A stretch of DNA of 47,737 nucleotides, taken from Vampirovibrionales bacterium. Lineage in GTDB: Bacteria > Cyanobacteriota > Vampirovibrionia > Vampirovibrionales > JAJTHC01. The stretch lies in assembly GCA_044371965.1 (NCBI GenBank), contig JBILSS010000002.1, forward strand, positions 1 through 47,737, read 5' to 3'. The notes beneath the pieces are model-generated. The model searched no databases. It had not been told where the DNA came from and saw nothing but the letters and a program-made list of their open reading frames with translations. Each line of letters starts with the position of its first letter. Position 1 is the stretch's first letter. The translations under genes and the position numbers were made by a program. Below, piece by piece: positions 4,409 to 15,264 of the stretch.

Positions 4409-5461
4409 ATGATTGAAACACTTTCACTCTTTAGCGGTTGCGGAGGCTTAGATCTTGGCATTGAAGGGGGTTTTAAAGTCCATAAAAAAGCCTTAAACCC
4501 CAAGGCTAAAAATGGTTGGACAATTGCTCCAAAAACACCCTTTAAAGTCGTTTGGGCAAATGATATTATGCCCCAAGCACAAAAGGCATGGCAAGCCAAC
4601 TTTGAAGGTAATTATGTCTTAGAATCCATTGAAACCTTACTTGAGCAAGGCTATTCATTCCCCAAGGTGGGTTTGGTGATTGGGGGCTTCCCTTGCCAAG
4701 ATTTTTCGCTTGCAGGCAAGCGGAAAGGCTTCTTGAGTTCACGCGGTCAATTGTATAAAGCCATGGCAAAGGTCTTAAAGCAAGTTCAGCCCAAAGCCTT
4801 TATTGCAGAAAATGTTTATGGCTTGCTTTCTATTGAAGGAGCTTTAGAAGAAATCACTCAAACCTTTTCAGCCAGTGGATACAACGTCTATACCGCTCCT
4901 TTATTCGCTCAAGATTACGGTATCCCTCAAACAAGGCAACGCATTTTCTTTATTGGGATTCGTGAAGATATTCAGCCCCCTAGTGATGAAGCGTCATGGT
5001 ATTTCCCTGAAAGTACTCATCGTGTTCCCCTTTCTTTAGCAGAAACCTTTTTTGATTTAAAAGAACCTGAAAATACCACTAATATTGAGCAAAAGCACTA
5101 TTCAAAAGCAAAATGGTATGGTAAAGGTCGACAAGGCAATATCGAAGTGAACCTTGCGAATCCTGGTCCTACCATGCGAGCGGAACATCACGGGAACATC
5201 GAGTTTAGACGCCTTGCTAAAGAACATGGTGGGCAATATCATCATGAATTAGAGGCGGGTCTAAAAGAACGACGTTTAACCGTAAGAGAATGTGCCAGAA
5301 TCCAAACCTTCCCCGATGATTTTGCGTTAATGCAAAATACGGAAGGCGATCCCTTACTTTCCGCTTCTTCTGCGTACAAGGTATTAGGTAATGCCGTTCC
5401 GCCTTTGCTTGCTTATCGGGTTGCGTCGCATTTAGCTTCTAAATGGGATTTATTAACATGA
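4409..5461 (+). CDS. DNA (cytosine-5)-methyltransferase, type II
   Basis: The full C5-MTase motif set is present: I FSGCGGLDLG, IV GGFPCQDFS (PCQ at 4691-4699), VI ENV, VIII QTRQR, IX RRLTVRECARIQTFPD and X GNAVPP. Confidence 0.93.
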   Translation: MIETLSLFSGCGGLDLGIEGGFKVHKKALNPKAKNGWTIAPKTPFKVVWANDIMPQAQKAWQANFEGNYVLESIETLLEQGYSFPKVGLVIGGFPCQDFSLAGKRKGFLSSRGQLYKAMAKVLKQVQPKAFIAENVYGLLSIEGALEEITQTFSASGYNVYTAPLFAQDYGIPQTRQRIFFIGIREDIQPPSDEASWYFPESTHRVPLSLAETFFDLKEPENTTNIEQKHYSKAKWYGKGRQGNIEVNLANPGPTMRAEHHGNIEFRRLAKEHGGQYHHELEAGLKERRLTVRECARIQTFPDDFALMQNTEGDPLLSASSAYKVLGNAVPPLLAYRVASHLASKWDLLT

Positions 5462-6051
5462 CAATCGATTTAGACTATAACTTATTTGTAGACTTGGTAA
5501 AAGAAGCCATACTTGTTTTACAAGAAGACACCAAGCAAATTAGAGATGCTCTTGCAACGAATCGACGCTTAGAAGAAGAATTTGAACACCATGTTTTAAT
5601 TTCTCTTAAGGCTGTTTCAAGGCTAAGTCCTTTTACGTTTCAAAAAATGAGTTCTTCGGGCAGTTTCCCAGATATTATAGCAGAACATGTAAATGGCAGA
5701 TGCTTCGGCGTCGAAGTTAAAACGAGTAAAAAATGGCGTACCTTAGGCAATAGTATTAACGCTTCGATTACAGATGCTCGCATCGAAAATATTGTGATTG
5801 TTTTTTGTAAAACGACACCCCCTATTGAATTTGCATGTAAATCTTACGAAGAAGCCATAATGGAAATAGCTGTAACACATTTCCCACGATATGTTTTAGA
5901 CATGGAAGGTGATTCAGAAAAGGGTATTTTAAGGCATATGGGAGTTTCGTACAGCACTTTTAAAAACTTTGACATTAAGCAAAAAATCGCTTTACTTCGG
6001 CAGTATTATGAGGATAAGGGTAAAGCAGGCAAACAATGGTGGATTAACTAA
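5458..6051 (+). CDS. Putative type II restriction endonuclease (PD-(D/E)xK fold), partner of the MTase
   Basis: The ATG at 5458 overlaps the MTase stop as ATGA. The signature is FPD-x13-VEVK (SGSFPDIIAEHVNGRCFGVEVKTSKK, about 5668-5721). Position directly downstream of the MTase supports the call. I do not recognise a family. Confidence 0.55.
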   Translation: MTIDLDYNLFVDLVKEAILVLQEDTKQIRDALATNRRLEEEFEHHVLISLKAVSRLSPFTFQKMSSSGSFPDIIAEHVNGRCFGVEVKTSKKWRTLGNSINASITDARIENIVIVFCKTTPPIEFACKSYEEAIMEIAVTHFPRYVLDMEGDSEKGILRHMGVSYSTFKNFDIKQKIALLRQYYEDKGKAGKQWWIN

Positions 6052-7223: not shown

Positions 7224-8480
7224 ATGCTAATTGAGTTTAGTGTTGAAAACTTTATGTGCTTTAAAAACGAAGTGACCTTTTCCTTCGAAGCCATGGAAGA
7301 TTTAGCCGAAGACAAGTTTTACAACCCTGAATCTCGACGGGATATTGGGATTGACGGCATTGGTTTGATCAATACCGTCAATGGTATTTACGGTAAAAAT
7401 GCGTCGGGGAAATCGACTTTGTTAAGGGCTATTGCAACGCTTTATAATGCCCTAAACTACACCTATACTAATGCAGGAGGCTTTTCAGGCGGTTTGATGC
7501 AACTACTAAACCCTATACTGAGGGGATCAAAAGCCTATAGCGAAAATTTGCCTATTAAATTTAAAGGGAAATTTGCCAATCCCGAAGCCCAATTGACCTA
7601 TATTTACGAAATCCATATTAAAAGTAATGACCAGTCTATTGTTAAAGAGACATTGACGCAAGGAGAGCATTTAATTTTTGATCGTCCCACCCATTTAGAA
7701 GAAGGTACTTACAATTGTTTCGATGAAACAGAGATAAACCTCTTATTTAAACATATTAGAACCCAACAACCTATCTTATCTTCCAATATACTTACCAATT
7801 TAGATTCAGTAAAAGATTTTTATAAAAATAGACAACCCGCTTTTATAGATCTTTCAGATTCACACTATAGAGGGAGTGTTACCTCTTCTTACACTCGTCA
7901 AAATTTTATGATGGGATCCTATATTGCTTCATTATTAGAAAATCCTATTATAAAACCGTTTATTTTAGAAGAATTACGAATGGCTGATTTTACGATCGAA
8001 AATTATAGCATTCATAAATTCCCCTTTGAGGAAGAAGACAAAGAAGAAGGTGATGACTATCTTTTATATTTTCACCATAAAAATAAAACGCTCTCTTTCT
8101 TTGAAGAGTCTTTGGGGACACAAAAATACTTTTTCCTTTTACTTGAAGCTTTTATTGCTTTGGAACAGGGTAAGTTACTTGTTATAGACGAGCTGGAAAA
8201 AGCCTTGCATCCACTTTTGGCAAGACGGTTTATTAACTTGTTTAAAAACCCTGAAACGAATCCTAAAAACGCCCGACTCTTATTTAGTTCGCATGACATG
8301 ATGTTTTTACATCAAAGTGTGCTAAATGGCGATCAAATTTGGTTTATTGATCGGGACGATCAAGACGGAACCACCTTATATTCGCCTGCGGAATATGCTG
8401 ATTTTGATCCATTACATGTGCAAAAAGATTATACGCTAGGGTGTTATGGTGCCGTCCCTAATACAGACTGGCGGGGGTAG
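7224..8480 (+). CDS. ABC/AAA_15-21-type ATPase, AbiLi/RloA-like
   Basis: Walker A GKNASGKST, Walker B LLVIDELEKALHP and LLFSSHD. The typical N-terminus is present (MLIEFSVENFMCFKN). It is paired with an RloB-like ORF 9 nt downstream. Confidence 0.8.
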   Translation: MLIEFSVENFMCFKNEVTFSFEAMEDLAEDKFYNPESRRDIGIDGIGLINTVNGIYGKNASGKSTLLRAIATLYNALNYTYTNAGGFSGGLMQLLNPILRGSKAYSENLPIKFKGKFANPEAQLTYIYEIHIKSNDQSIVKETLTQGEHLIFDRPTHLEEGTYNCFDETEINLLFKHIRTQQPILSSNILTNLDSVKDFYKNRQPAFIDLSDSHYRGSVTSSYTRQNFMMGSYIASLLENPIIKPFILEELRMADFTIENYSIHKFPFEEEDKEEGDDYLLYFHHKNKTLSFFEESLGTQKYFFLLLEAFIALEQGKLLVIDELEKALHPLLARRFINLFKNPETNPKNARLLFSSHDMMFLHQSVLNGDQIWFIDRDDQDGTTLYSPAEYADFDPLHVQKDYTLGCYGAVPNTDWRG

Positions 8481-8489
8481 GTAATTTTT

Positions 8490-9110
8490 ATGTCTGGAAG
8501 AAATAATAGACAAGACTTTCGCAGAGTTAAGAAACCAGCAAAGCCACTTCTATGCTTGACAGAAGGCAAAGAAACGGAAATGTTGTACCTAAAGCATACT
8601 TTGAAGACTCAATCTAAAACGATAACGTCTAAATTTAAGCAAGGCTCTCAAATCATACAATACGCCATTGAAAAATACAAAGGTGAATATAAAATTATTT
8701 ATGCTATTTTCGATCGGGAGTTTCCGTCTGCTGAAGAACATCGTACTTTAAGGGAAATAGATGAAATACTTAAGAAAGATCAAGGAACGGTCATTCCTAT
8801 TATGAGTAGCCCTTGTATTGAATATGTACTTTTACTTCATTTTGTTGATAAGCACCCTATTTTCAATAATAATAAAGAAGTTGAAAGGGCTTTGAAAAAG
8901 GAATGTCCCTCTTACCAAAAAAACGAGACTTCTTTCTTTCAGTCTCTTACAAAGCAACAAATACAAGAAGCTTCTGAAAGATTGAAAAAACGAGATACAG
9001 AGCTTGATTTTACTGAGGACAGCCCTATTAAACAAAGAGCTGATAAAGACCATATGCCTAACAGTAATTTCCATGTGTTGATTGATGCCTTGACGAATCA
9101 AAAGACCTAG
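8490..9110 (+). CDS. RloB/AbiLii-like (Toprim-like) protein
   Basis: The N-terminal signature LCLTEGKETEMLYL matches the RloB EGxxTE pattern. A second acidic motif is IYAIFDREF. The protein is 206 aa and sits immediately after the ATPase. Confidence 0.7.
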   Translation: MSGRNNRQDFRRVKKPAKPLLCLTEGKETEMLYLKHTLKTQSKTITSKFKQGSQIIQYAIEKYKGEYKIIYAIFDREFPSAEEHRTLREIDEILKKDQGTVIPIMSSPCIEYVLLLHFVDKHPIFNNNKEVERALKKECPSYQKNETSFFQSLTKQQIQEASERLKKRDTELDFTEDSPIKQRADKDHMPNSNFHVLIDALTNQKT

Positions 9111-9121
9111 GAAACAAGCAC

Positions 9122-9523
9122 ATGACCGACATTCGCTGGATGCAACGCTTCCAAAATTATGAAAAAGTCCTCGTCAAATTGCAACACATGGTGCAACGAC
9201 TCCACGCCACGCCTGACGATGAAGCCGTCCACATGGCGGTGGTGCAAGCCTTTGAGTTCACCTACGAACTCGGCTGGAAAGTTCTCAAGGATTATCTCAC
9301 CTTTCAAGGCAATCCCACCACAACCGCAAGAGATTCCATTAAAGAAGCCTTTGCCCTGAACATCGTCAAAGACGGGCAGGCATGGATCGACATGATTCAA
9401 GACCGCAACCTCACTTCACACGTCTATGATGAAGCCACGGCTCAAAAATTACTGACGCATGTGGTGCAAGCCTATTTACCTGCCTTTGAAGACTTGCTCA
9501 CCTATTTAAAGGAAAAAGCCTAA
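9122..9523 (+). CDS. HEPN-domain toxin, HI0074-family nucleotidyltransferase substrate-binding protein
   Basis: RWMQRFQNYEKVL, FEFTYELGWKVLKDYL and the Rx4H motif RNLTSH (about 9404-9421). Confidence 0.88.
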   Translation: MTDIRWMQRFQNYEKVLVKLQHMVQRLHATPDDEAVHMAVVQAFEFTYELGWKVLKDYLTFQGNPTTTARDSIKEAFALNIVKDGQAWIDMIQDRNLTSHVYDEATAQKLLTHVVQAYLPAFEDLLTYLKEKA

Positions 9524-9838
9524 ATGTCTTTTGGACTTCCGTCAAATGTGATTGAACAAGTTTGTGCTGTCTTTCAAGCCTTCCCCGAAGTCGAAGTGGT
9601 GAAAGTCTTTGGCTCACGAGCAGAAGGGACGCATCGTCTAGGATCCGATGTGGATCTTGCTCTTTTTGGCGACTTGAGTTTTGAAACACTCGCTCAAATC
9701 GCCGATGTCCTTGAAGAACTTCCCACTCCTTACCGTTATGATGTAACGGCGTATGAAAGCTTGACGCATGAGGATCTTAAATCGCACATTGATCGAGTGG
9801 GATTAACCTTGTATAAAAAATCAAGCTCAAACGAATGA
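9524..9838 (+). CDS. Minimal nucleotidyltransferase (MNT) antitoxin
   Basis: GSRAEGTHRLGSDVDLALF (GS...DxD polymerase-beta-type NTase motif). The ATG directly abuts the HEPN stop (TAAATG). Confidence 0.88.
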   Translation: MSFGLPSNVIEQVCAVFQAFPEVEVVKVFGSRAEGTHRLGSDVDLALFGDLSFETLAQIADVLEELPTPYRYDVTAYESLTHEDLKSHIDRVGLTLYKKSSSNE

Positions 9839-9920
9839 TTTACGGCGTTGTACCTTGCAGGACTCGCCTTATTTTGCTACTCTAAAGGAAGCAAAAATTC
9901 ACTACAGATAAGGATGCCCT

Positions 9921-10619
9921 ATGATTTTCAATCTTTTAAATCCCGCCACCCCTCAATCGTCAAACGATCAAGAACCCCACCCCCTAGACAGCGTCTGCCA
10001 AGACGCCCACGCCTTCTATCAACGAGGCTGGCTCTTCGGTACATCGGGCAATTTTTCCGTACGAGGGCATGAAAGCAATGGGGGCAATGAACATACTTAT
10101 TGGGTCACCGCCAGTGGCTTAGACAAAGGCAACTTAAGCGTAGAAGGTTTCATTCACCTAAGCACGGGTTTGACTTACGTTAACCCCGACGAAACTCGCA
10201 AGCCTTCGGATGAAAGCTTGGTGCATGAAGCCATTTATCAACATATTGAAACGGCTCAAGTGGTGTACCATGTGCATCCGCCGTATGGAACGTGGTTGTC
10301 TCGATACCAAGCCGAAGAAGTGACACTTCTTCGGCTGCCTGCCATTGAAATGATCAAAGGCTTGGGTTTACAGACGCATGAAGTAGAAGTTCCCTTGCCT
10401 GTTCTGCCCAACACACAATCGATGCACGACCTTTGCACGATGCTGGATCCCCTTTGGCATGCCTTGATGATTCCTGCCTTTTTCATTCAAGGACATGGGC
10501 TTTACGCTTGGGGAAGCACCCCACAAGAAGCGAAACGTCATGTGGAAATCCTTGAGTTTCTCTTTCAACAACAAGTTTGGGACAGGCTAGCCGAAGGAAG
10601 CACCCCCCGTGCCGACTAA
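9921..10619 (+). CDS. Class II aldolase/adducin-family protein, MtnB-like (methylthioribulose-1-phosphate dehydratase-like)
   Basis: FYQRGWLFGTSGNFSVR and HVHPPYG motifs typical of the MtnB/class II aldolase fold. Confidence 0.7.
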   Translation: MIFNLLNPATPQSSNDQEPHPLDSVCQDAHAFYQRGWLFGTSGNFSVRGHESNGGNEHTYWVTASGLDKGNLSVEGFIHLSTGLTYVNPDETRKPSDESLVHEAIYQHIETAQVVYHVHPPYGTWLSRYQAEEVTLLRLPAIEMIKGLGLQTHEVEVPLPVLPNTQSMHDLCTMLDPLWHALMIPAFFIQGHGLYAWGSTPQEAKRHVEILEFLFQQQVWDRLAEGSTPRAD

Positions 10620-11733
10620 GCATCTGTGGGTGTTTACAGGCAACCGTGCGGAATACGGTTTGTTGCATCCTTTGTTGGTGGGCTTGGACGATCATACGGA
10701 TTTTGAGGTGACGCTCGTTATTGGAGGTGAACATCTCCACAATGCGGAAAGTTTCGCCGAAACAAAGCAGATAGACGGCATTCATCGGCAGGTGTTGACG
10801 CTCCCTAAAGAAACGTCTTATCACGTTTCGTCGCAAATTAGCTCTCATCAAATCGCCATGACCCACGCTCTGCAAGAGACGTCTTCACCGCCTGATGCTG
10901 TGCTTGTTTTGGGGGATCGTATGGAAGCGATGGGGATTGCGTTGGCGACTTTTTCGCAAGGCTTACCGCTGGTGCATCTTGCGGCGGGGGACATCACCGA
11001 AGGCGGTTGTGTGGATGATCGTCTGCGTTTTGCGATTTCAAGTTTGGCGACTTATGCGGTGTGCTTTTCGCAAAGTAGCCACGCACGGCTTTTGCAACAA
11101 GGCTTGCTAAAGTCGTCTCACGTTTTAAAAAGTCCATCTTTGGCGGTGGACAATGCCTTAAACGTCAGACATAAGCCTTATCAAGCCTTATGTGACGAGC
11201 TGGGATTAGATCCACAAATGCCTTTCGTATTGTTTACGCAACATCCTGTGGGAGCCGAAGGCAAAGCCAGCGTGGATTATTTTAACGCCAGCATCGAGGC
11301 GTTAGTGTCTTTAGAAGGCGTGCAAGTCCTTGCGACCTATCCTAATCAAGATGCGTATGGTGACGATTTTCTAGCGGTGATTGAGCGTTCGCAAAAGACG
11401 CATCCACAGATTCGTTGGGTGCAGCATTTGGGAGCCGAACGCTACCAAACCGCCTTGTATCATTGCGTAGGAGTCGTGGGTAATTCAAGTTCAGGGCTTT
11501 ACGAAACGGCGTTTTACCAAAAGCCGTGCTTGAATATCGGGCATCGTCAAGCAGGTCGGGAACGAGCAAGTAATGTGCTAGATTGTGACTATGGCGTGGA
11601 AGCCGTGACGCAAGGTTTGCATACGCTATTGCACGATGCGACATTTCATCAGCAGGTGAAGGAAGCGAGGTCTCCATTTGGGAATGAAGCCAGTGTGCCT
11701 CATATTGTAGCGTTTTTAGAAGATAAGCTGTGA
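10609..11733 (+). CDS. UDP-N-acetylglucosamine 2-epimerase, hydrolysing (NeuC-like)
   Basis: GTG start overlapping the preceding gene by 11 nt. The N-terminus VFTGNRAEYGLLHPLL and the motifs HLAAGDITEG and GNSSSGLYE match the NeuC-type epimerase pattern. Confidence 0.7.
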   Translation: MPTKHLWVFTGNRAEYGLLHPLLVGLDDHTDFEVTLVIGGEHLHNAESFAETKQIDGIHRQVLTLPKETSYHVSSQISSHQIAMTHALQETSSPPDAVLVLGDRMEAMGIALATFSQGLPLVHLAAGDITEGGCVDDRLRFAISSLATYAVCFSQSSHARLLQQGLLKSSHVLKSPSLAVDNALNVRHKPYQALCDELGLDPQMPFVLFTQHPVGAEGKASVDYFNASIEALVSLEGVQVLATYPNQDAYGDDFLAVIERSQKTHPQIRWVQHLGAERYQTALYHCVGVVGNSSSGLYETAFYQKPCLNIGHRQAGRERASNVLDCDYGVEAVTQGLHTLLHDATFHQQVKEARSPFGNEASVPHIVAFLEDKL

Positions 11734-11764
11734 TGGTTGGTGTCCTTTAGCTAACCCAATTGAC

Positions 11765-11793
11765 GTGACATTCAAAACAAAGTGGTTTATAAT
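11765..11793 (+). promoter_or_regulatory. Candidate sigma70-type promoter for the unknown/PIN pair
   Basis: GTGACA (11765-11770), 17-nt spacer, perfect TATAAT (11788-11793), 38 nt upstream of the ATG at 11832. Confidence 0.35.
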
Positions 11794-11831
11794 GAATTAA
11801 GAAGCAAGTATTATATTTTAGGTTCATTGTC

Positions 11832-12578
11832 ATGACTGCCAAGTTAGATCAAATTAAAAGTATGCTCACATTAGAAATAGATTCTAATACAATTAAGCCT
11901 GCGGATTTTATTAAGATCTTACAATCTTTTGATGAACTCGTAAACATTATCTATGATTCTGTTTTGGGTGAAGAAAAATTGGATTGGCACGTTTCTGTTG
12001 ACAAGGGTAGTGCGTTGATTCAGTACGACTTGCCAACAGACAATATCATTCCTTTCCCCAAGAAAGCAAGAGGGTTGTTTCTAATTAACAAGGGGTTGGA
12101 AAGCTTGGATCGTGACGAGGATTTGCCTGAAGGCTTTCCTCTTGAAGCATTAAAGCCCATTGAACAAATCAGTAAAAACAAGGGTTGTCCTGTTAGGATT
12201 TGGACAGAAAAAGAGAATGTACTTTTAAGTGAAGCCATTATGAAAAATGCCAATGCTCGTCATGTGAGTGACTCTTATCTAGCGTTAGGTACAGTAGAAG
12301 GTACTATTGAAACAATCCAAGCAAGAAATAACTCTTGTACTATTTACGAACCTATTTTAGACAAGCCTATTCGTTGTTTCGGTACGGATGATTTTGTTGA
12401 CTTTGTTGACGAAGCAAATAAGCTCCTCAAAAAACGTGTTGAAATAAGAGGTGAAATCACATACGATCGATTGGGATTCCCAACCAGTGTTCAAGCCTAT
12501 AAGTTGGAAGTTTTACCTACCCTAGACGATGTGCCTCATTTTAAAAAAATGCTAGGGATTCTTAAATATAATGAGTAA
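11832..12578 (+). CDS. Hypothetical 248-aa protein, upstream partner of the PIN nuclease
   Basis: A long AT-rich ORF with its own promoter-like signal. It overlaps the PIN gene by 8 nt (ATGAGTAA). I recognise no motif. Confidence 0.6.
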   Translation: MTAKLDQIKSMLTLEIDSNTIKPADFIKILQSFDELVNIIYDSVLGEEKLDWHVSVDKGSALIQYDLPTDNIIPFPKKARGLFLINKGLESLDRDEDLPEGFPLEALKPIEQISKNKGCPVRIWTEKENVLLSEAIMKNANARHVSDSYLALGTVEGTIETIQARNNSCTIYEPILDKPIRCFGTDDFVDFVDEANKLLKKRVEIRGEITYDRLGFPTSVQAYKLEVLPTLDDVPHFKKMLGILKYNE

Positions 12579-13074
12579 AAAAATAAAAAAACAAAATGTT
12601 TATTGGGATGCCGATTGTTTCTTGTCTTACCTCCAAAGAGAACAAACTTACGAAAATTGTGCAGGTATTTTAGAAGAAGCTCGTGCTGGTAATATCTTAA
12701 TCATTACTTCAGTATTCACAATTACGGAAGTTTTAGGAGGTGGATCTGGCAAGCTAATCACAAGAGAGACGCAAGCAGAAATAGACAAATTTTTCAAATC
12801 GCCTTTCATCACGGTTGTAAATGTAGATAGGTCACTGGCAGAATATGCGAGATCACTTTTTTGGGATTATAAGATCCCTAAGAAAGATAGCATTCATATC
12901 GCAACGGCTTCAATGTGGGAGATACCCATTATTTATACGTTTGATAAGGGAATTATTGAATTTCACAATAAAATCCCTTTTAGGGGAGATGAGTTTAGCT
13001 TTATTGAAATTAAAAATCCTCCTGTCTATAGTAAGCCTGTCTATAGTGAACAAACCAAGTTATTCGAAGTCTAA
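12571..13074 (+). CDS. PIN-domain nuclease (VapC-like)
   Basis: The PIN acidic quartet sits in the expected contexts: VYWDADCF, TITEVL, KKDSIHIATA and YTFDKG. Confidence 0.8.
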   Translation: MSKKIKKQNVYWDADCFLSYLQREQTYENCAGILEEARAGNILIITSVFTITEVLGGGSGKLITRETQAEIDKFFKSPFITVVNVDRSLAEYARSLFWDYKIPKKDSIHIATASMWEIPIIYTFDKGIIEFHNKIPFRGDEFSFIEIKNPPVYSKPVYSEQTKLFEV

Positions 13075-13148
13075 GTCATTAGTGCTTTTGTGTTTCTACG
13101 TAAACTGTTGTAGAATGAGTAAACCACTATTATCGTAAGGAATATGCA

Positions 13149-13817
13149 ATGTTTTTTGGTGTCTATCAACAATTACAACAACAGAATCCCACAGGGGCAA
13201 GCACCCTATTGAGTCCTGAATCTGCCCTATTAGATTGGCCAGCGTCTTTCATCACGCCATGGCAAAGCTTCCCACAAACGCCGACGGTACAATGGTCGCT
13301 AGAAATTGGGGGCGATGTGCAAGACGCCAAGCAAGTCACTTATGTGGAATTAAGTGCGTTGCCAATTACGTATCAAGTCAAACGTTTGGCATCTAAGCAC
13401 GGATGGGCATTTAAAGCGGAATGGCACGGCATTACCGTTCAACAATTGCTCAATCAAGTTTCGCCACAAGGAGATACTAACTTCCTTGAAGTGGAAGACG
13501 TACACGGTCAAACGGCGGTTTTCCCTTTAGCCAGCATTATTAAAAATCAAGCGTTATTGGTCTTGCATCAAGGCACGCAACCCCTTTCCCCATGGCACGG
13601 AGGACCCCTGCGTTTCATGGCGTTTGATTACGTGGCGGAATATAATTTAGGGCAAGTCAAAGCCCTTCGTTTCCTAAAAACGATTAGTAAAGAAGCCAAA
13701 GCCCTAAGTGATGCCCAAATTGTGCCAGCAGGTAAGTATTATTGTTATGATCTCAAAGAACTTAAAGACAACCCTAAAGCAGGGGAACTTAAAGGCTTTC
13801 TAATATCTCAAGGTTAA
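13149..13817 (+). CDS. Sulfite-oxidase-fold (molybdopterin-binding oxidoreductase-like) domain protein
   Basis: WSLEIGG...VTYVELSALP...WHGITVQQLL...GGPLRFM resembles the Oxidored_molyb pattern. No Cys is visible at the expected Mo-ligand position. Confidence 0.5.
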   Translation: MFFGVYQQLQQQNPTGASTLLSPESALLDWPASFITPWQSFPQTPTVQWSLEIGGDVQDAKQVTYVELSALPITYQVKRLASKHGWAFKAEWHGITVQQLLNQVSPQGDTNFLEVEDVHGQTAVFPLASIIKNQALLVLHQGTQPLSPWHGGPLRFMAFDYVAEYNLGQVKALRFLKTISKEAKALSDAQIVPAGKYYCYDLKELKDNPKAGELKGFLISQG

Positions 13818-13959: not shown

Positions 13960-14382
13960 ATGAAACACGCTGATTATTTAAATACAACAAATACAACCAC
14001 AATTGCTGGAGTCTTAAAGAATTATCCTATAACTTCAGATGATATTGAAAAGGCTTTACAAAAATACCTCAAAAAGCAAGAAAAACATCTTAAAAAAGAC
14101 TGTCCTTGGACATCTTTCAAAATGTTTGAACTCTTCACAGAAGCTCTTGGTCTTGGCGGCACACTTTGGTACTCTGAAAAATTTCTCAATTCTTCCAGCA
14201 AGCATTCTCCACTCACTTACATTACTGTTGAAACAGCGGCTTTGTTTTCAGGCTTTGTTCTAGGGAAGCTTCCTTCCTTCGTCCTATATGCTTGGAAAAA
14301 GAGTCGCCTAGCCCATAAACAAGAGGGGATCGAAGCCTTGCTTCAAGAGCTAGGGACGTTAGAAACTTCTAATACCATTTAA
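13960..14382 (+). CDS. Hypothetical 140-aa protein with a hydrophobic segment
   Basis: The ORF has a putative TM stretch (ITVETAALFSGFVLGKLPSFVLYAW). The last codons and the stop lie inside repeat copy A. Confidence 0.5.
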   Translation: MKHADYLNTTNTTTIAGVLKNYPITSDDIEKALQKYLKKQEKHLKKDCPWTSFKMFELFTEALGLGGTLWYSEKFLNSSSKHSPLTYITVETAALFSGFVLGKLPSFVLYAWKKSRLAHKQEGIEALLQELGTLETSNTI

Positions 14383-14598: not shown

Positions 14599-15264
14599 AT
14601 GAAAAATGTAAGTGCTGAACTTATAATTAAGTCGCCTTTTGACATGACAAAACTGAAAAGTCGTGAAATGGTTGTCAAACCTTTATTGAATTTACGAGCT
14701 ATTTTAAACCACCCTGTTATGGAAAAGAACCCCTTCCCTACTCTAATAAAAATAAAGCCTACAGTTCCTAGCACTCTTGCCAGTTTTGTACCAGACCCTA
14801 ATTATGTAGAACCCTTTTCTCGTTTAAGTGAAGCGGTGAATCAAAAGCTAGATACCTATGCTCCTGAAGTTCATAATAAAGGAGAAAAAATTATAGCGAA
14901 GACAGGGGAAAGAACTCCTTTTAAACAGTATCGATTTTTTTTAGGCAGAACAAGGAATCACTTAAAAGAAATTTTAAACACGGTGATAAAAGACGAAATT
15001 TTGCCACAGGGAGACCCCTTTTTGCTTTTAGTCACAACAGCCCAAGAAAAAGTAAAACAAGATAGAAAAAGGTTTCCACAAGTGTCTGTTTTGAGACAAA
15101 AGTCTATACCACCTAAAGACGTAGAACAAAACATTATTTTTTCCCAACTCGCTGAACTAATGCTTGTATTCAGGTTTCTCGAATTTTCGCCATCCGAAAA
15201 ATTGCTTCAGGAACTTCTTCCCAGTGTCGAAGGCTATGATCCGTTGGATCACCTCCCTTTTTAA
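14599..15264 (+). CDS. Hypothetical 221-aa protein
   Basis: ORF only, AT-rich, with no recognisable motif. Confidence 0.45.
   Translation: MKNVSAELIIKSPFDMTKLKSREMVVKPLLNLRAILNHPVMEKNPFPTLIKIKPTVPSTLASFVPDPNYVEPFSRLSEAVNQKLDTYAPEVHNKGEKIIAKTGERTPFKQYRFFLGRTRNHLKEILNTVIKDEILPQGDPFLLLVTTAQEKVKQDRKRFPQVSVLRQKSIPPKDVEQNIIFSQLAELMLVFRFLEFSPSEKLLQELLPSVEGYDPLDHLPF

Follow-up and report, generated by a model that had tools for sequence, protein, structure and literature searches.

We describe a two-gene module, here termed A-PIN, from a 47,737-nucleotide stretch of a Vampirovibrionales genome (Cyanobacteriota; GenBank assembly GCA_044371965.1, contig JBILSS010000002.1, positions 1 to 47,737 of the forward strand), the whole of which we refer to as the window. 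The module comprises gene A (11832-12578), which codes for a protein of 248 residues, and a second gene on the same forward strand (12571-13074) that codes for a VapC-like PIN nuclease of 167 residues. We propose that A-PIN is probably a type II toxin-antitoxin (TA)-like module that serves as addiction or stabilization cargo of mobile elements, in which PIN would be a toxic RNase kept in check by A, an antidote or sensor of non-canonical type. The proposal draws on the gene anatomy, the size of the family, the pairing and co-divergence of the two genes, the intact PIN active site, the carriage by mobile elements and the asymmetric decay of the pair, all of which are directly observed. A-PIN would thus act like VapBC, yet it is not a canonical member of that class because A is not small, carries none of the RHH, AbrB, Phd and HTH domains and is preceded by no operator palindrome.

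The gene pair, its family and the predicted fold of A

A first-pass annotation made from the bare sequence had recognized two overlapping open reading frames (ORFs) and, in the second, a PIN domain with four acidic residues, and both descriptions hold. The start of the PIN gene overlaps the stop end of A by 8 nt on the forward strand (ATGAGTAA, 12571-12578), an arrangement of translational coupling, and the PIN protein matches Pfam PF01850 with E 2.3e-9 (38.3 bits versus a cutoff of 23.6). The acidic residues D13 (YWDAD), E53 (TITEV), D106 (KDSIHIA) and D125 (TFDKG) are each at least 90% conserved across 110 partner PINs. For the upstream protein the same annotation had seen no RHH, AbrB, Phd or HTH motif; concordantly, searches of Pfam, NCBIfam, PADLOC, PHROGs and the sequences of the PDB with window A gave no significant match, whether to these or to another known family of antitoxins or housekeeping proteins, and a profile search of the A family against PDB sequences likewise gave no match. 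PADLOC returned no match for PIN and only 11.5 bits over 32 residues (E 0.022) for A, while 109 A members yielded just two isolated chance-level matches.

The pair had initially been regarded as novel and isolated, a view that the size of the A family overturns. Word-indexed searches queried with A, PIN and a 109-member alignment had suggested a tiny or orphan family, returning 4-8 proteins (four relatives for the A query alone). This was rejected by an exhaustive HMMER search with a five-sequence profile of A, which, with clustering at 50% identity, recovered 1646 representative clusters at E <=1e-3 and 503 at E <=1e-10; nearly all of these relatives are full-length proteins of 240-255 residues that are ~25% identical to window A. 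No related loci were found in a genome-collection search with alignment A1, and tblastn searches of plasmids with A and its distant relative P0143, and of phages with window A, gave no match.

Loci were sampled with a degenerate DNA pattern for an OB-fold motif of A, F.[KR]R[VI].[VAIL].G.[IV].Y...G.P..[IV].[VAI], which recalls 34% of the known members (53/156) and carries an estimated ~39 bits, with ~2 chance matches in the collection. The scan took one genome per species and yielded at least 120 stretches, and all locus counts given here are among the matches listed. All 120 listed stretches encode strong A-family members, and they derive from Alphaproteobacteria, Rhodothermales, Nitrospirota, Verrucomicrobiota, Armatimonadota, Acidobacteriota, Latescibacterota, Saccharimonadales, Bifidobacterium, Oceanobacillus and others. 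A hidden Markov model (HMM) of the PIN subfamily detects a PIN directly 3' of A on the same strand in 119 of 127 A matches, its match starting a median of 9 nt past the A stop; the remaining eight either run off the end of the locus (five) or are fragments (three). The junctions of 110 pairs include 52 overlaps of 4 nt (ATGA in 39, GTGA in 7, TTGA in 6), 13 of 1 nt and 6 of 8 nt. Distant members looked up singly show the same arrangement, with PIN overlapping the A stop by 8 nt in P0004 and by 4 nt each in P0143 (from a Coriobacteriia metagenome-assembled genome, MAG), P0160 and P0158; the PIN of P0004 (locus L001) is 36% identical to that of the window (E 1e-30). P0159 was considered as a PIN-less exception and dismissed as such, for the N-terminus of PIN (MRYRYWDAS...) is still present there and runs into degenerate sequence; counting this remnant, 5/5 of the looked-up distant members have PIN 3' of A.

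Furthermore, the two proteins diverge together, with a mirror-tree correlation of pairwise identities over 94 intact pairs of r = 0.86, where permutations reach 0.12 at most. Of the two, A is the faster to diverge (median identity 27%, versus 40% for PIN) and the more acidic (median pI 5.5, versus 7.0 for PIN). The earlier notion of a real, conserved two-gene module is thereby borne out: virtually all relatives examined have both genes, whose pairing is essentially obligate or nearly so. A supposed case of two copies in one genome (L021 and L090) was discarded, the two being overlapping blocks of the same site.

Some of the relatives display variations on this arrangement. At L010 (1336-1440) an intact A is followed by just the first PIN residues (MRYRYWDAS...) and degenerate sequence, an orphan-antidote configuration. 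At L001 the operon of P0004 is extended beyond PIN by a pair of hydrophobic ORFs, paralogs with 146 and 141 residues (9231-9671 and 9668-10093), joined by 4-nt overlaps and not seen in the window or in copies borne by insertion sequences (ISs). A lysine-rich ORF of ~40 residues (motif ..DDALRKLLSTPPKP.., with a K-rich tail) overlaps the PIN 3' end in another frame at L007 (2522-2653) and also occurs in L032, L036, L062, L123, L009, L111 and L115, several of which are IS-borne, and the window copy lacks it; what it represents may be a small third component or else a regulatory region that is conserved.

An AlphaFold model of A based on a deep alignment (m7467264c5d6c; mean pLDDT 92.6, pTM 0.69), which replaced a first model from 5 sequences (pLDDT 62), predicts an N-terminal alpha/beta domain (aa 1-147; 11832..12272), a C-terminal five-stranded OB-fold (aa 148-228; 12273..12515; b1-b2-b3-helix-b4-b5, at pLDDT ~93-98) and a tail bearing a conserved C-terminal helix (aa 237-245) ahead of the TAA stop (12516..12578), all on the forward strand. 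The near-invariant positions of the 109-member alignment A2 are spread over all three segments: F33, W52, V56, G59 and S60 fall in the N-terminal domain; G153 and G157 (in a GS/TxEG motif), C182, R202, G207 and Y211 (in KRVxVxGxIxY) and G215 constitute the motifs of the OB-fold; and P235 and G242, together with the conserved I243 and L244, mark the tail. The top 50 Foldseek matches in the PDB are nearly all nucleic-acid-binding OB domains, the remainder being SilF, and include the LysRS anticodon-binding domain, RPA32/14, RMI, Stn1/Ten1, the ExoVII large subunit and PolD DP1 (E 2e-4 to 7e-3, with ~100 residues aligned). Moreover, four of the 109 A members match Pfam PF01336 (tRNA_anti-codon; best E 5e-7), window A itself lying below Pfam significance, and beyond these four no Pfam, NCBIfam or PADLOC family is found in the 109 members. 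On the strength of the model, then, aa 148-228 of A is an OB-fold of the nucleic-acid-binding type, for which binding of nucleic acids is predicted. Such a two-domain structure with an OB-fold would suit the earlier suggestion of a large partner that goes beyond a simple antitoxin. By analogy to the C-terminal tails of VapB, the C-terminal helix is a candidate PIN-binding segment.

The N-terminal domain has no match among solved structures in the Foldseek search of the PDB, where the ranking is filled by OB-domain matches. Against predicted viral structures, however, the whole-length fold of A resembles three phage proteins with E ~1e-9 and modest TM-scores of 0.40-0.48, one of which is a protein of 370 residues labeled 'DUF6575 domain-containing protein'. 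DUF6575 is among the domains newly tied to phage defence (Vassallo et al. 2022, PMC9519451). The label is the name of the matched protein, and none of the 109 A members matches DUF6575 by sequence in Pfam at E <=0.01; hence we treat this structural resemblance as a lead only.

Carriage by IS1595 elements and a temperate phage

The defence genes in the vicinity of the window pair had been offered as an argument for its function, but this context proves not to be general. A Pfam census of the 150 nearest-neighbor ORFs of 119 pairs identified the IS1595 (ISXO2-like) transposase as the sole recurrent neighbor (PF12762 in 15, its zinc ribbon PF12760 in 11), the rest being 2 N6_N4 methylases and otherwise unrelated housekeeping singletons; by these raw counts, taken with no background model, defence genes are not enriched among the 150. 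In an iterative search, an IS1595-like transposase was found in 49/116 loci (42%), almost always on the same strand as A and abutting its start, and ~30 of these 49 transposases are full-length, the others (about a third) being fragments. A terminal inverted repeat with the consensus GGCGATATTATACTTGACAAACCCA lies 25-70 nt 5' of the transposase, and the reverse complement of this consensus lies 150-890 nt 3' of the PIN stop. The 13 elements that were dissected span 2397-3186 bp with terminal repeats of 24-41 bp, and 11 of them are flanked by perfect 8-bp direct repeats, such as AAATATTT, CTTGTTTT, CAAGGTTG and CAACAAAA. As the inverted repeats and 8-bp duplications enclose the transposase, A and PIN together, these therefore constitute one transposing unit, a "transporter IS" (tIS). 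The end consensus (ggnnatTAT) and the 8-bp duplication presumably place these elements in the ISNwi1+ subgroup of ISfinder, a provisional assignment; this subgroup and ISPna2+ we take to be carriers of passenger genes.

The tIS class is reported to be confined to the families IS1595 and IS66 (bioRxiv 10.1101/2021.05.26.445724). The elements bearing A-PIN conform to it in that the pair is located between an IS1595 transposase (zinc ribbon and DDE) and the right inverted repeat (IRR), within 2.4-3.2 kb and with 8-bp duplications; the window copy differs in having neither transposase nor inverted repeats. Transposons of the Tn3 family carry TA pairs, PIN toxins included (bioRxiv 10.1101/2021.05.26.445724), and share with the present elements a TA-like pair as integral cargo adjoining the transposition genes. 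Here, by contrast, the element is of the DDE IS1595 family, the antitoxin candidate is non-canonical, and the pair abuts the transposase in the same orientation. Searches of the accessible literature turned up no PIN or OB-fold plus PIN cargo of IS1595 elements.

Carriage extends to a temperate phage. In the complete genome of Pseudomonas phage vB_PaeS_AV001 (PQ349086.1), A-PIN immediately follows an S24 CI-like repressor: gene 054 (L140 2297-3133) codes for a distant A member (hhalign probability 98.6%, E 6e-16) and gene 055 (L140 3123-3656), overlapping it by 11 nt, for a PIN (Pfam E 2e-8), the 'repressor protein' label of the latter appearing to be a mis-annotation. In IMG/VR, seven contigs contain the A family, of which four have intact pairs (two of them identical matches), two have a truncated PIN and one has an A fragment only.

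The pair also decays in an asymmetric manner. Among the 112 non-redundant loci not cut by the locus end, both genes are intact in 93, PIN alone is disrupted in 10, A alone in 3 and both in 6. The excess of single disruptions in PIN (10 versus 3) has P = 0.008 relative to the expectation from gene length, which would place 60% of single hits in A, and P = 0.046 at 50:50. That PIN is lost more often than A is the direction to be expected if PIN were harmful without A.

In the window, no transposase separates the upstream Epimerase_2 gene from A and no IS inverted-repeat match rises above chance; of 47 other solo loci one has an IRR-like match. An imperfect 22-nt direct repeat exactly brackets the window module, with its two forward-strand copies 73% identical at a spacing of 1419 nt. 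The left copy (11723..11744) lies on the stop of the Epimerase_2 gene (10609-11733) and looks like a duplicated remnant (TGATGGTTGGTGTC) of the start of the downstream Oxidored_molyb gene (13149-13817), whose ATG (13149) is included in the right copy (13142..13163). The core TTGGTGTC is retained on both sides of the module in the relatives L002-L004. These sequence features suggest an insertion scar at a former stop/start junction, although two-copy repeats also arise by chance, and the predicted Epimerase_2/Oxidored_molyb junction of the empty site reads ...CTGTGATGTTTTTTGGTGTC.... A metagenome scan with the flanking epimerase, which sought insertion-free relatives, returned one 1.8-kb contig only. 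Taken together, A-PIN is a mobile module, borne as cargo by transposable elements and by a temperate phage and present also in solo insertions like that of the window.

The window copy and its surroundings

Ahead of A, on the forward strand, is a sigma-70-type promoter-like site (GTGACA-17-TATAAT, 11765-11793). It had been noted at the outset, and it is indeed the top-scoring site in 11400-13400, with 11/12 matches; relatives with an overall identity of 90% have this block unchanged (100%) and differ in the 5' untranslated region behind it. Contigs from one freshwater metatranscriptome run cover 12214-12591, one of them (12357-12591) spanning the A/PIN junction, and the sequence of the locus is present in freshwater and lake metagenomes. 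At 90% identity or above, the epimerase next to A falls into one cluster with a protein that NCBI attributes to a Vampirovibrionales MAG. In the lake metagenome run X6 the flanks are found at high identity, with two alleles up to ~12180, and no contig of at least 90% identity covers 12255-12956, which takes in most of the 3' half of A and PIN; this pattern points either to a divergent allele or to a gap at the module on the population level.

The AT-richness ascribed to the pair is likewise upheld: at 36.8% GC for A and 34.7% for PIN, versus a mean of 45.9% (sd 5.4) over the 38 window genes, the two lie ~10 GC points under the mean and are among the seven lowest-GC genes of the 38. The other five are accessory-looking, namely RloB, AAA_21, a 202-residue ORF beside a C5 DNA methylase and two family-less ORFs. 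Pfam also substantiates the restriction-modification (R-M), AbiL-like and HEPN/MNT modules that had been sighted in this part of the window. These are the C5 DNA methylase (4409-5461); AAA_21 (7224-8480) followed by RloB (8490-9110); and the HEPN-like NTase_sub_bind (9122-9523) followed by MNT (9524-9838). Housekeeping genes (EF-G, homoserine dehydrogenase, a PLP enzyme) sit between the accessory modules of the window, and the small accessory modules of this genome are scattered singly among housekeeping genes rather than gathered in one island.

Several neighboring features deserve mention in their own right. The AAA_21 and RloB pair (7224-9110), which has an AbiL-like or OLD-related architecture, directly adjoins the HEPN-like and MNT pair (9122-9838). 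The 202-residue ORF (5443-6051, 36.0% GC), which lacks a Pfam match, overlaps the C5 DNA methylase gene at its end; judged by its position, it is a candidate for the cognate restriction endonuclease. Just 3' of the Mo-oxidoreductase gene are two low-GC ORFs with no Pfam match (13960-14382, 37.8%, and 14599-15264, 36.6%), which look like further horizontally acquired accessory genes.

Mechanism, competing explanations and significance

In the TA-like module that we favor, A would be the cognate protein antidote, made first and in excess via translational coupling, and would bind and block the toxic RNase PIN, plausibly through its conserved C-terminal helix. The OB-fold could lend A the capacity to bind nucleic acids, whether for autoregulation, for mimicry or occlusion of a tRNA-like substrate, or for sensing. 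Upon loss or inactivation of A, PIN would be freed and loss of the carrier element thereby penalized, which amounts to addiction; the same release could also abort phage infection. The comparison with VapBC is instructive in this regard. Shared with it are a PIN with four conserved acidic residues encoded by the second gene of a bicistronic operon, an overlap of 1, 4 or 8 nt, a more acidic and faster-evolving upstream partner, a mobile and patchy distribution, and preferential loss of the toxin gene. The differences lie in the partner, which has ~250 residues versus 70-90, combines an alpha/beta domain with an OB-fold in place of RHH, AbrB, Phd or HTH and is accompanied by no palindromic operator, and in the nearest solved VapC, which is a marginal sequence match (7by2, E 0.19). 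Among described PINs, clusters PIN.4 to PIN.7 are canonical PIN clusters of unknown function in non-TA-like genomic contexts, PIN.7 being mainly cyanobacterial (Matelska et al. 2017, PMC5499597). Compared by description only, they resemble the present case in having a PF01850-type PIN whose upstream neighbor is not a transcription-factor-like antitoxin. Searches of the accessible literature revealed no OB-fold partner of PIN or VapC.

A number of observations weigh against the TA-like interpretation. RHH, AbrB, Phd and HTH domains are absent by Pfam and NCBIfam from A and 109 relatives, and the A promoter region (11700-11860) lacks repeats of 8 nt or longer, inverted or direct, that might serve as an operator; with neither an antitoxin DNA-binding domain nor a palindromic operator, classical autoregulation of the pair by A is unsupported. 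The dimensions of A, ~250 residues or three times the usual, with two conserved globular domains, hint at something more than a simple antitoxin. For transcription and co-transcription of the pair the evidence is thin, consisting of two short contigs from one small metatranscriptome with possible DNA content. The decay asymmetry comprises 13 events in MAGs, some of them long-read, in which frameshifts are possibly sequencing errors, and sampling by one motif at 34% recall over-represents part of the A family.

An elaboration that we advance tentatively, and consider rather unlikely as it stands, is that A acts as an OB-fold nucleic-acid sensor that keeps the VapC-like RNase inactive and releases it upon binding a specific single-stranded nucleic acid or a tRNA state arising from phage infection or from loss or excision of the carrier. 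If this were true, a sensor-gated toxin would be joint addiction and immunity cargo of IS1595 elements and temperate phages, and would define a new TA/abortive-infection (Abi) family with thousands of members. A related proposal, which overlaps the TA model mechanistically and differs in the selected function, is that of a sensor-effector system for abortive infection or defence, with A detecting a phage cue (ssDNA, RNA or protein) and releasing or activating PIN for the sake of immunity. This too we regard as doubtful, though several features speak for it: the window copy lies within 7 kb of R-M, AAA_21/RloB and HEPN/MNT modules, the phage pair sits beside the repressor at a typical site of prophage exclusion genes, P0143 is in a TA/Abi island and P0160 adjoins a methyltransferase-Mrr fusion. 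The fast evolution and large size of A point the same way, as does its fold resemblance to the three phage proteins with the one DUF6575 label (PMC9519451). Conversely, no PADLOC model matches A, the 109 members or PIN, the 150 nearest neighbors have IS1595 transposases and 2 methylases in place of an enrichment in defence genes, and sequence searches connect no A member to DUF6575. Thus, of the initial interpretation as a phage-defence-type two-gene system, the conserved pair and the large partner outside the known antitoxin families stand, while the defence enrichment gives way to mobile cargo. Such a distribution is no less in keeping with an addiction-type toxin-antidote module than with dedicated phage defence, and a phage-defence role for A-PIN is possible but unsupported.

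The presence of the pair within IS1595 elements raises the question of whether it assists their transposition, with A as an OB-fold ssDNA binder and PIN as a structure-specific nuclease. In 42% of the loci it is indeed arrayed in operon-like fashion with the transposase, both lying between the inverted repeats; ssDNA is bound by OB-folds like those of RPA and ExoVII, and PIN-like nucleases include DNA flap endonucleases (FENs; Matelska et al. 2017, PMC5499597). Yet over half of the pairs, that of the window included, are intact with neither a transposase nor an inverted-repeat remnant, and the transposase is in pieces at roughly one third of the loci that have one, most A-PIN pairs being intact. 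The pair in the phage immunity region has no transposase, and PIN is of the VapC rather than the FEN type by Pfam. To our knowledge, moreover, ordinary IS1595 members transpose by the transposase alone, and we accordingly hold an accessory function in transposition to be improbable. Still further from the data, and most improbable of all, is a housekeeping RNA-processing nuclease of two subunits, an RNA-binding OB-fold and a catalytic PIN. Combinations of OB-fold and PIN are known in RNA-processing enzymes and the locus is transcribed in situ, but the patchy occurrence across phyla amid unrelated genomic neighbors, the low GC relative to the host, the carriage by transposons and phage and the frequent pseudogenized copies all speak against such a role.

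With A-PIN read as a TA-like module, its known components are the PIN toxin-antidote operon and the transporter IS; what is new is the partner protein A and the combination. At least 1646 clusters of ~250-residue proteins that are labeled "hypothetical" everywhere can now be assigned to a fold, joined to an obligate partner and recognized as mobile. The module is short (1.24 kb) and self-contained, and hence directly testable. If A neutralizes PIN, the repertoire of PIN antitoxins would gain an OB-fold protein devoid of a classical DNA-binding domain, with the ligand of the OB-fold as the ensuing question. Finally, the occurrence of a toxin-antidote-like module inside a simple IS1595 IS with target duplications bears on how small transposons are stabilized and how accessory functions spread.

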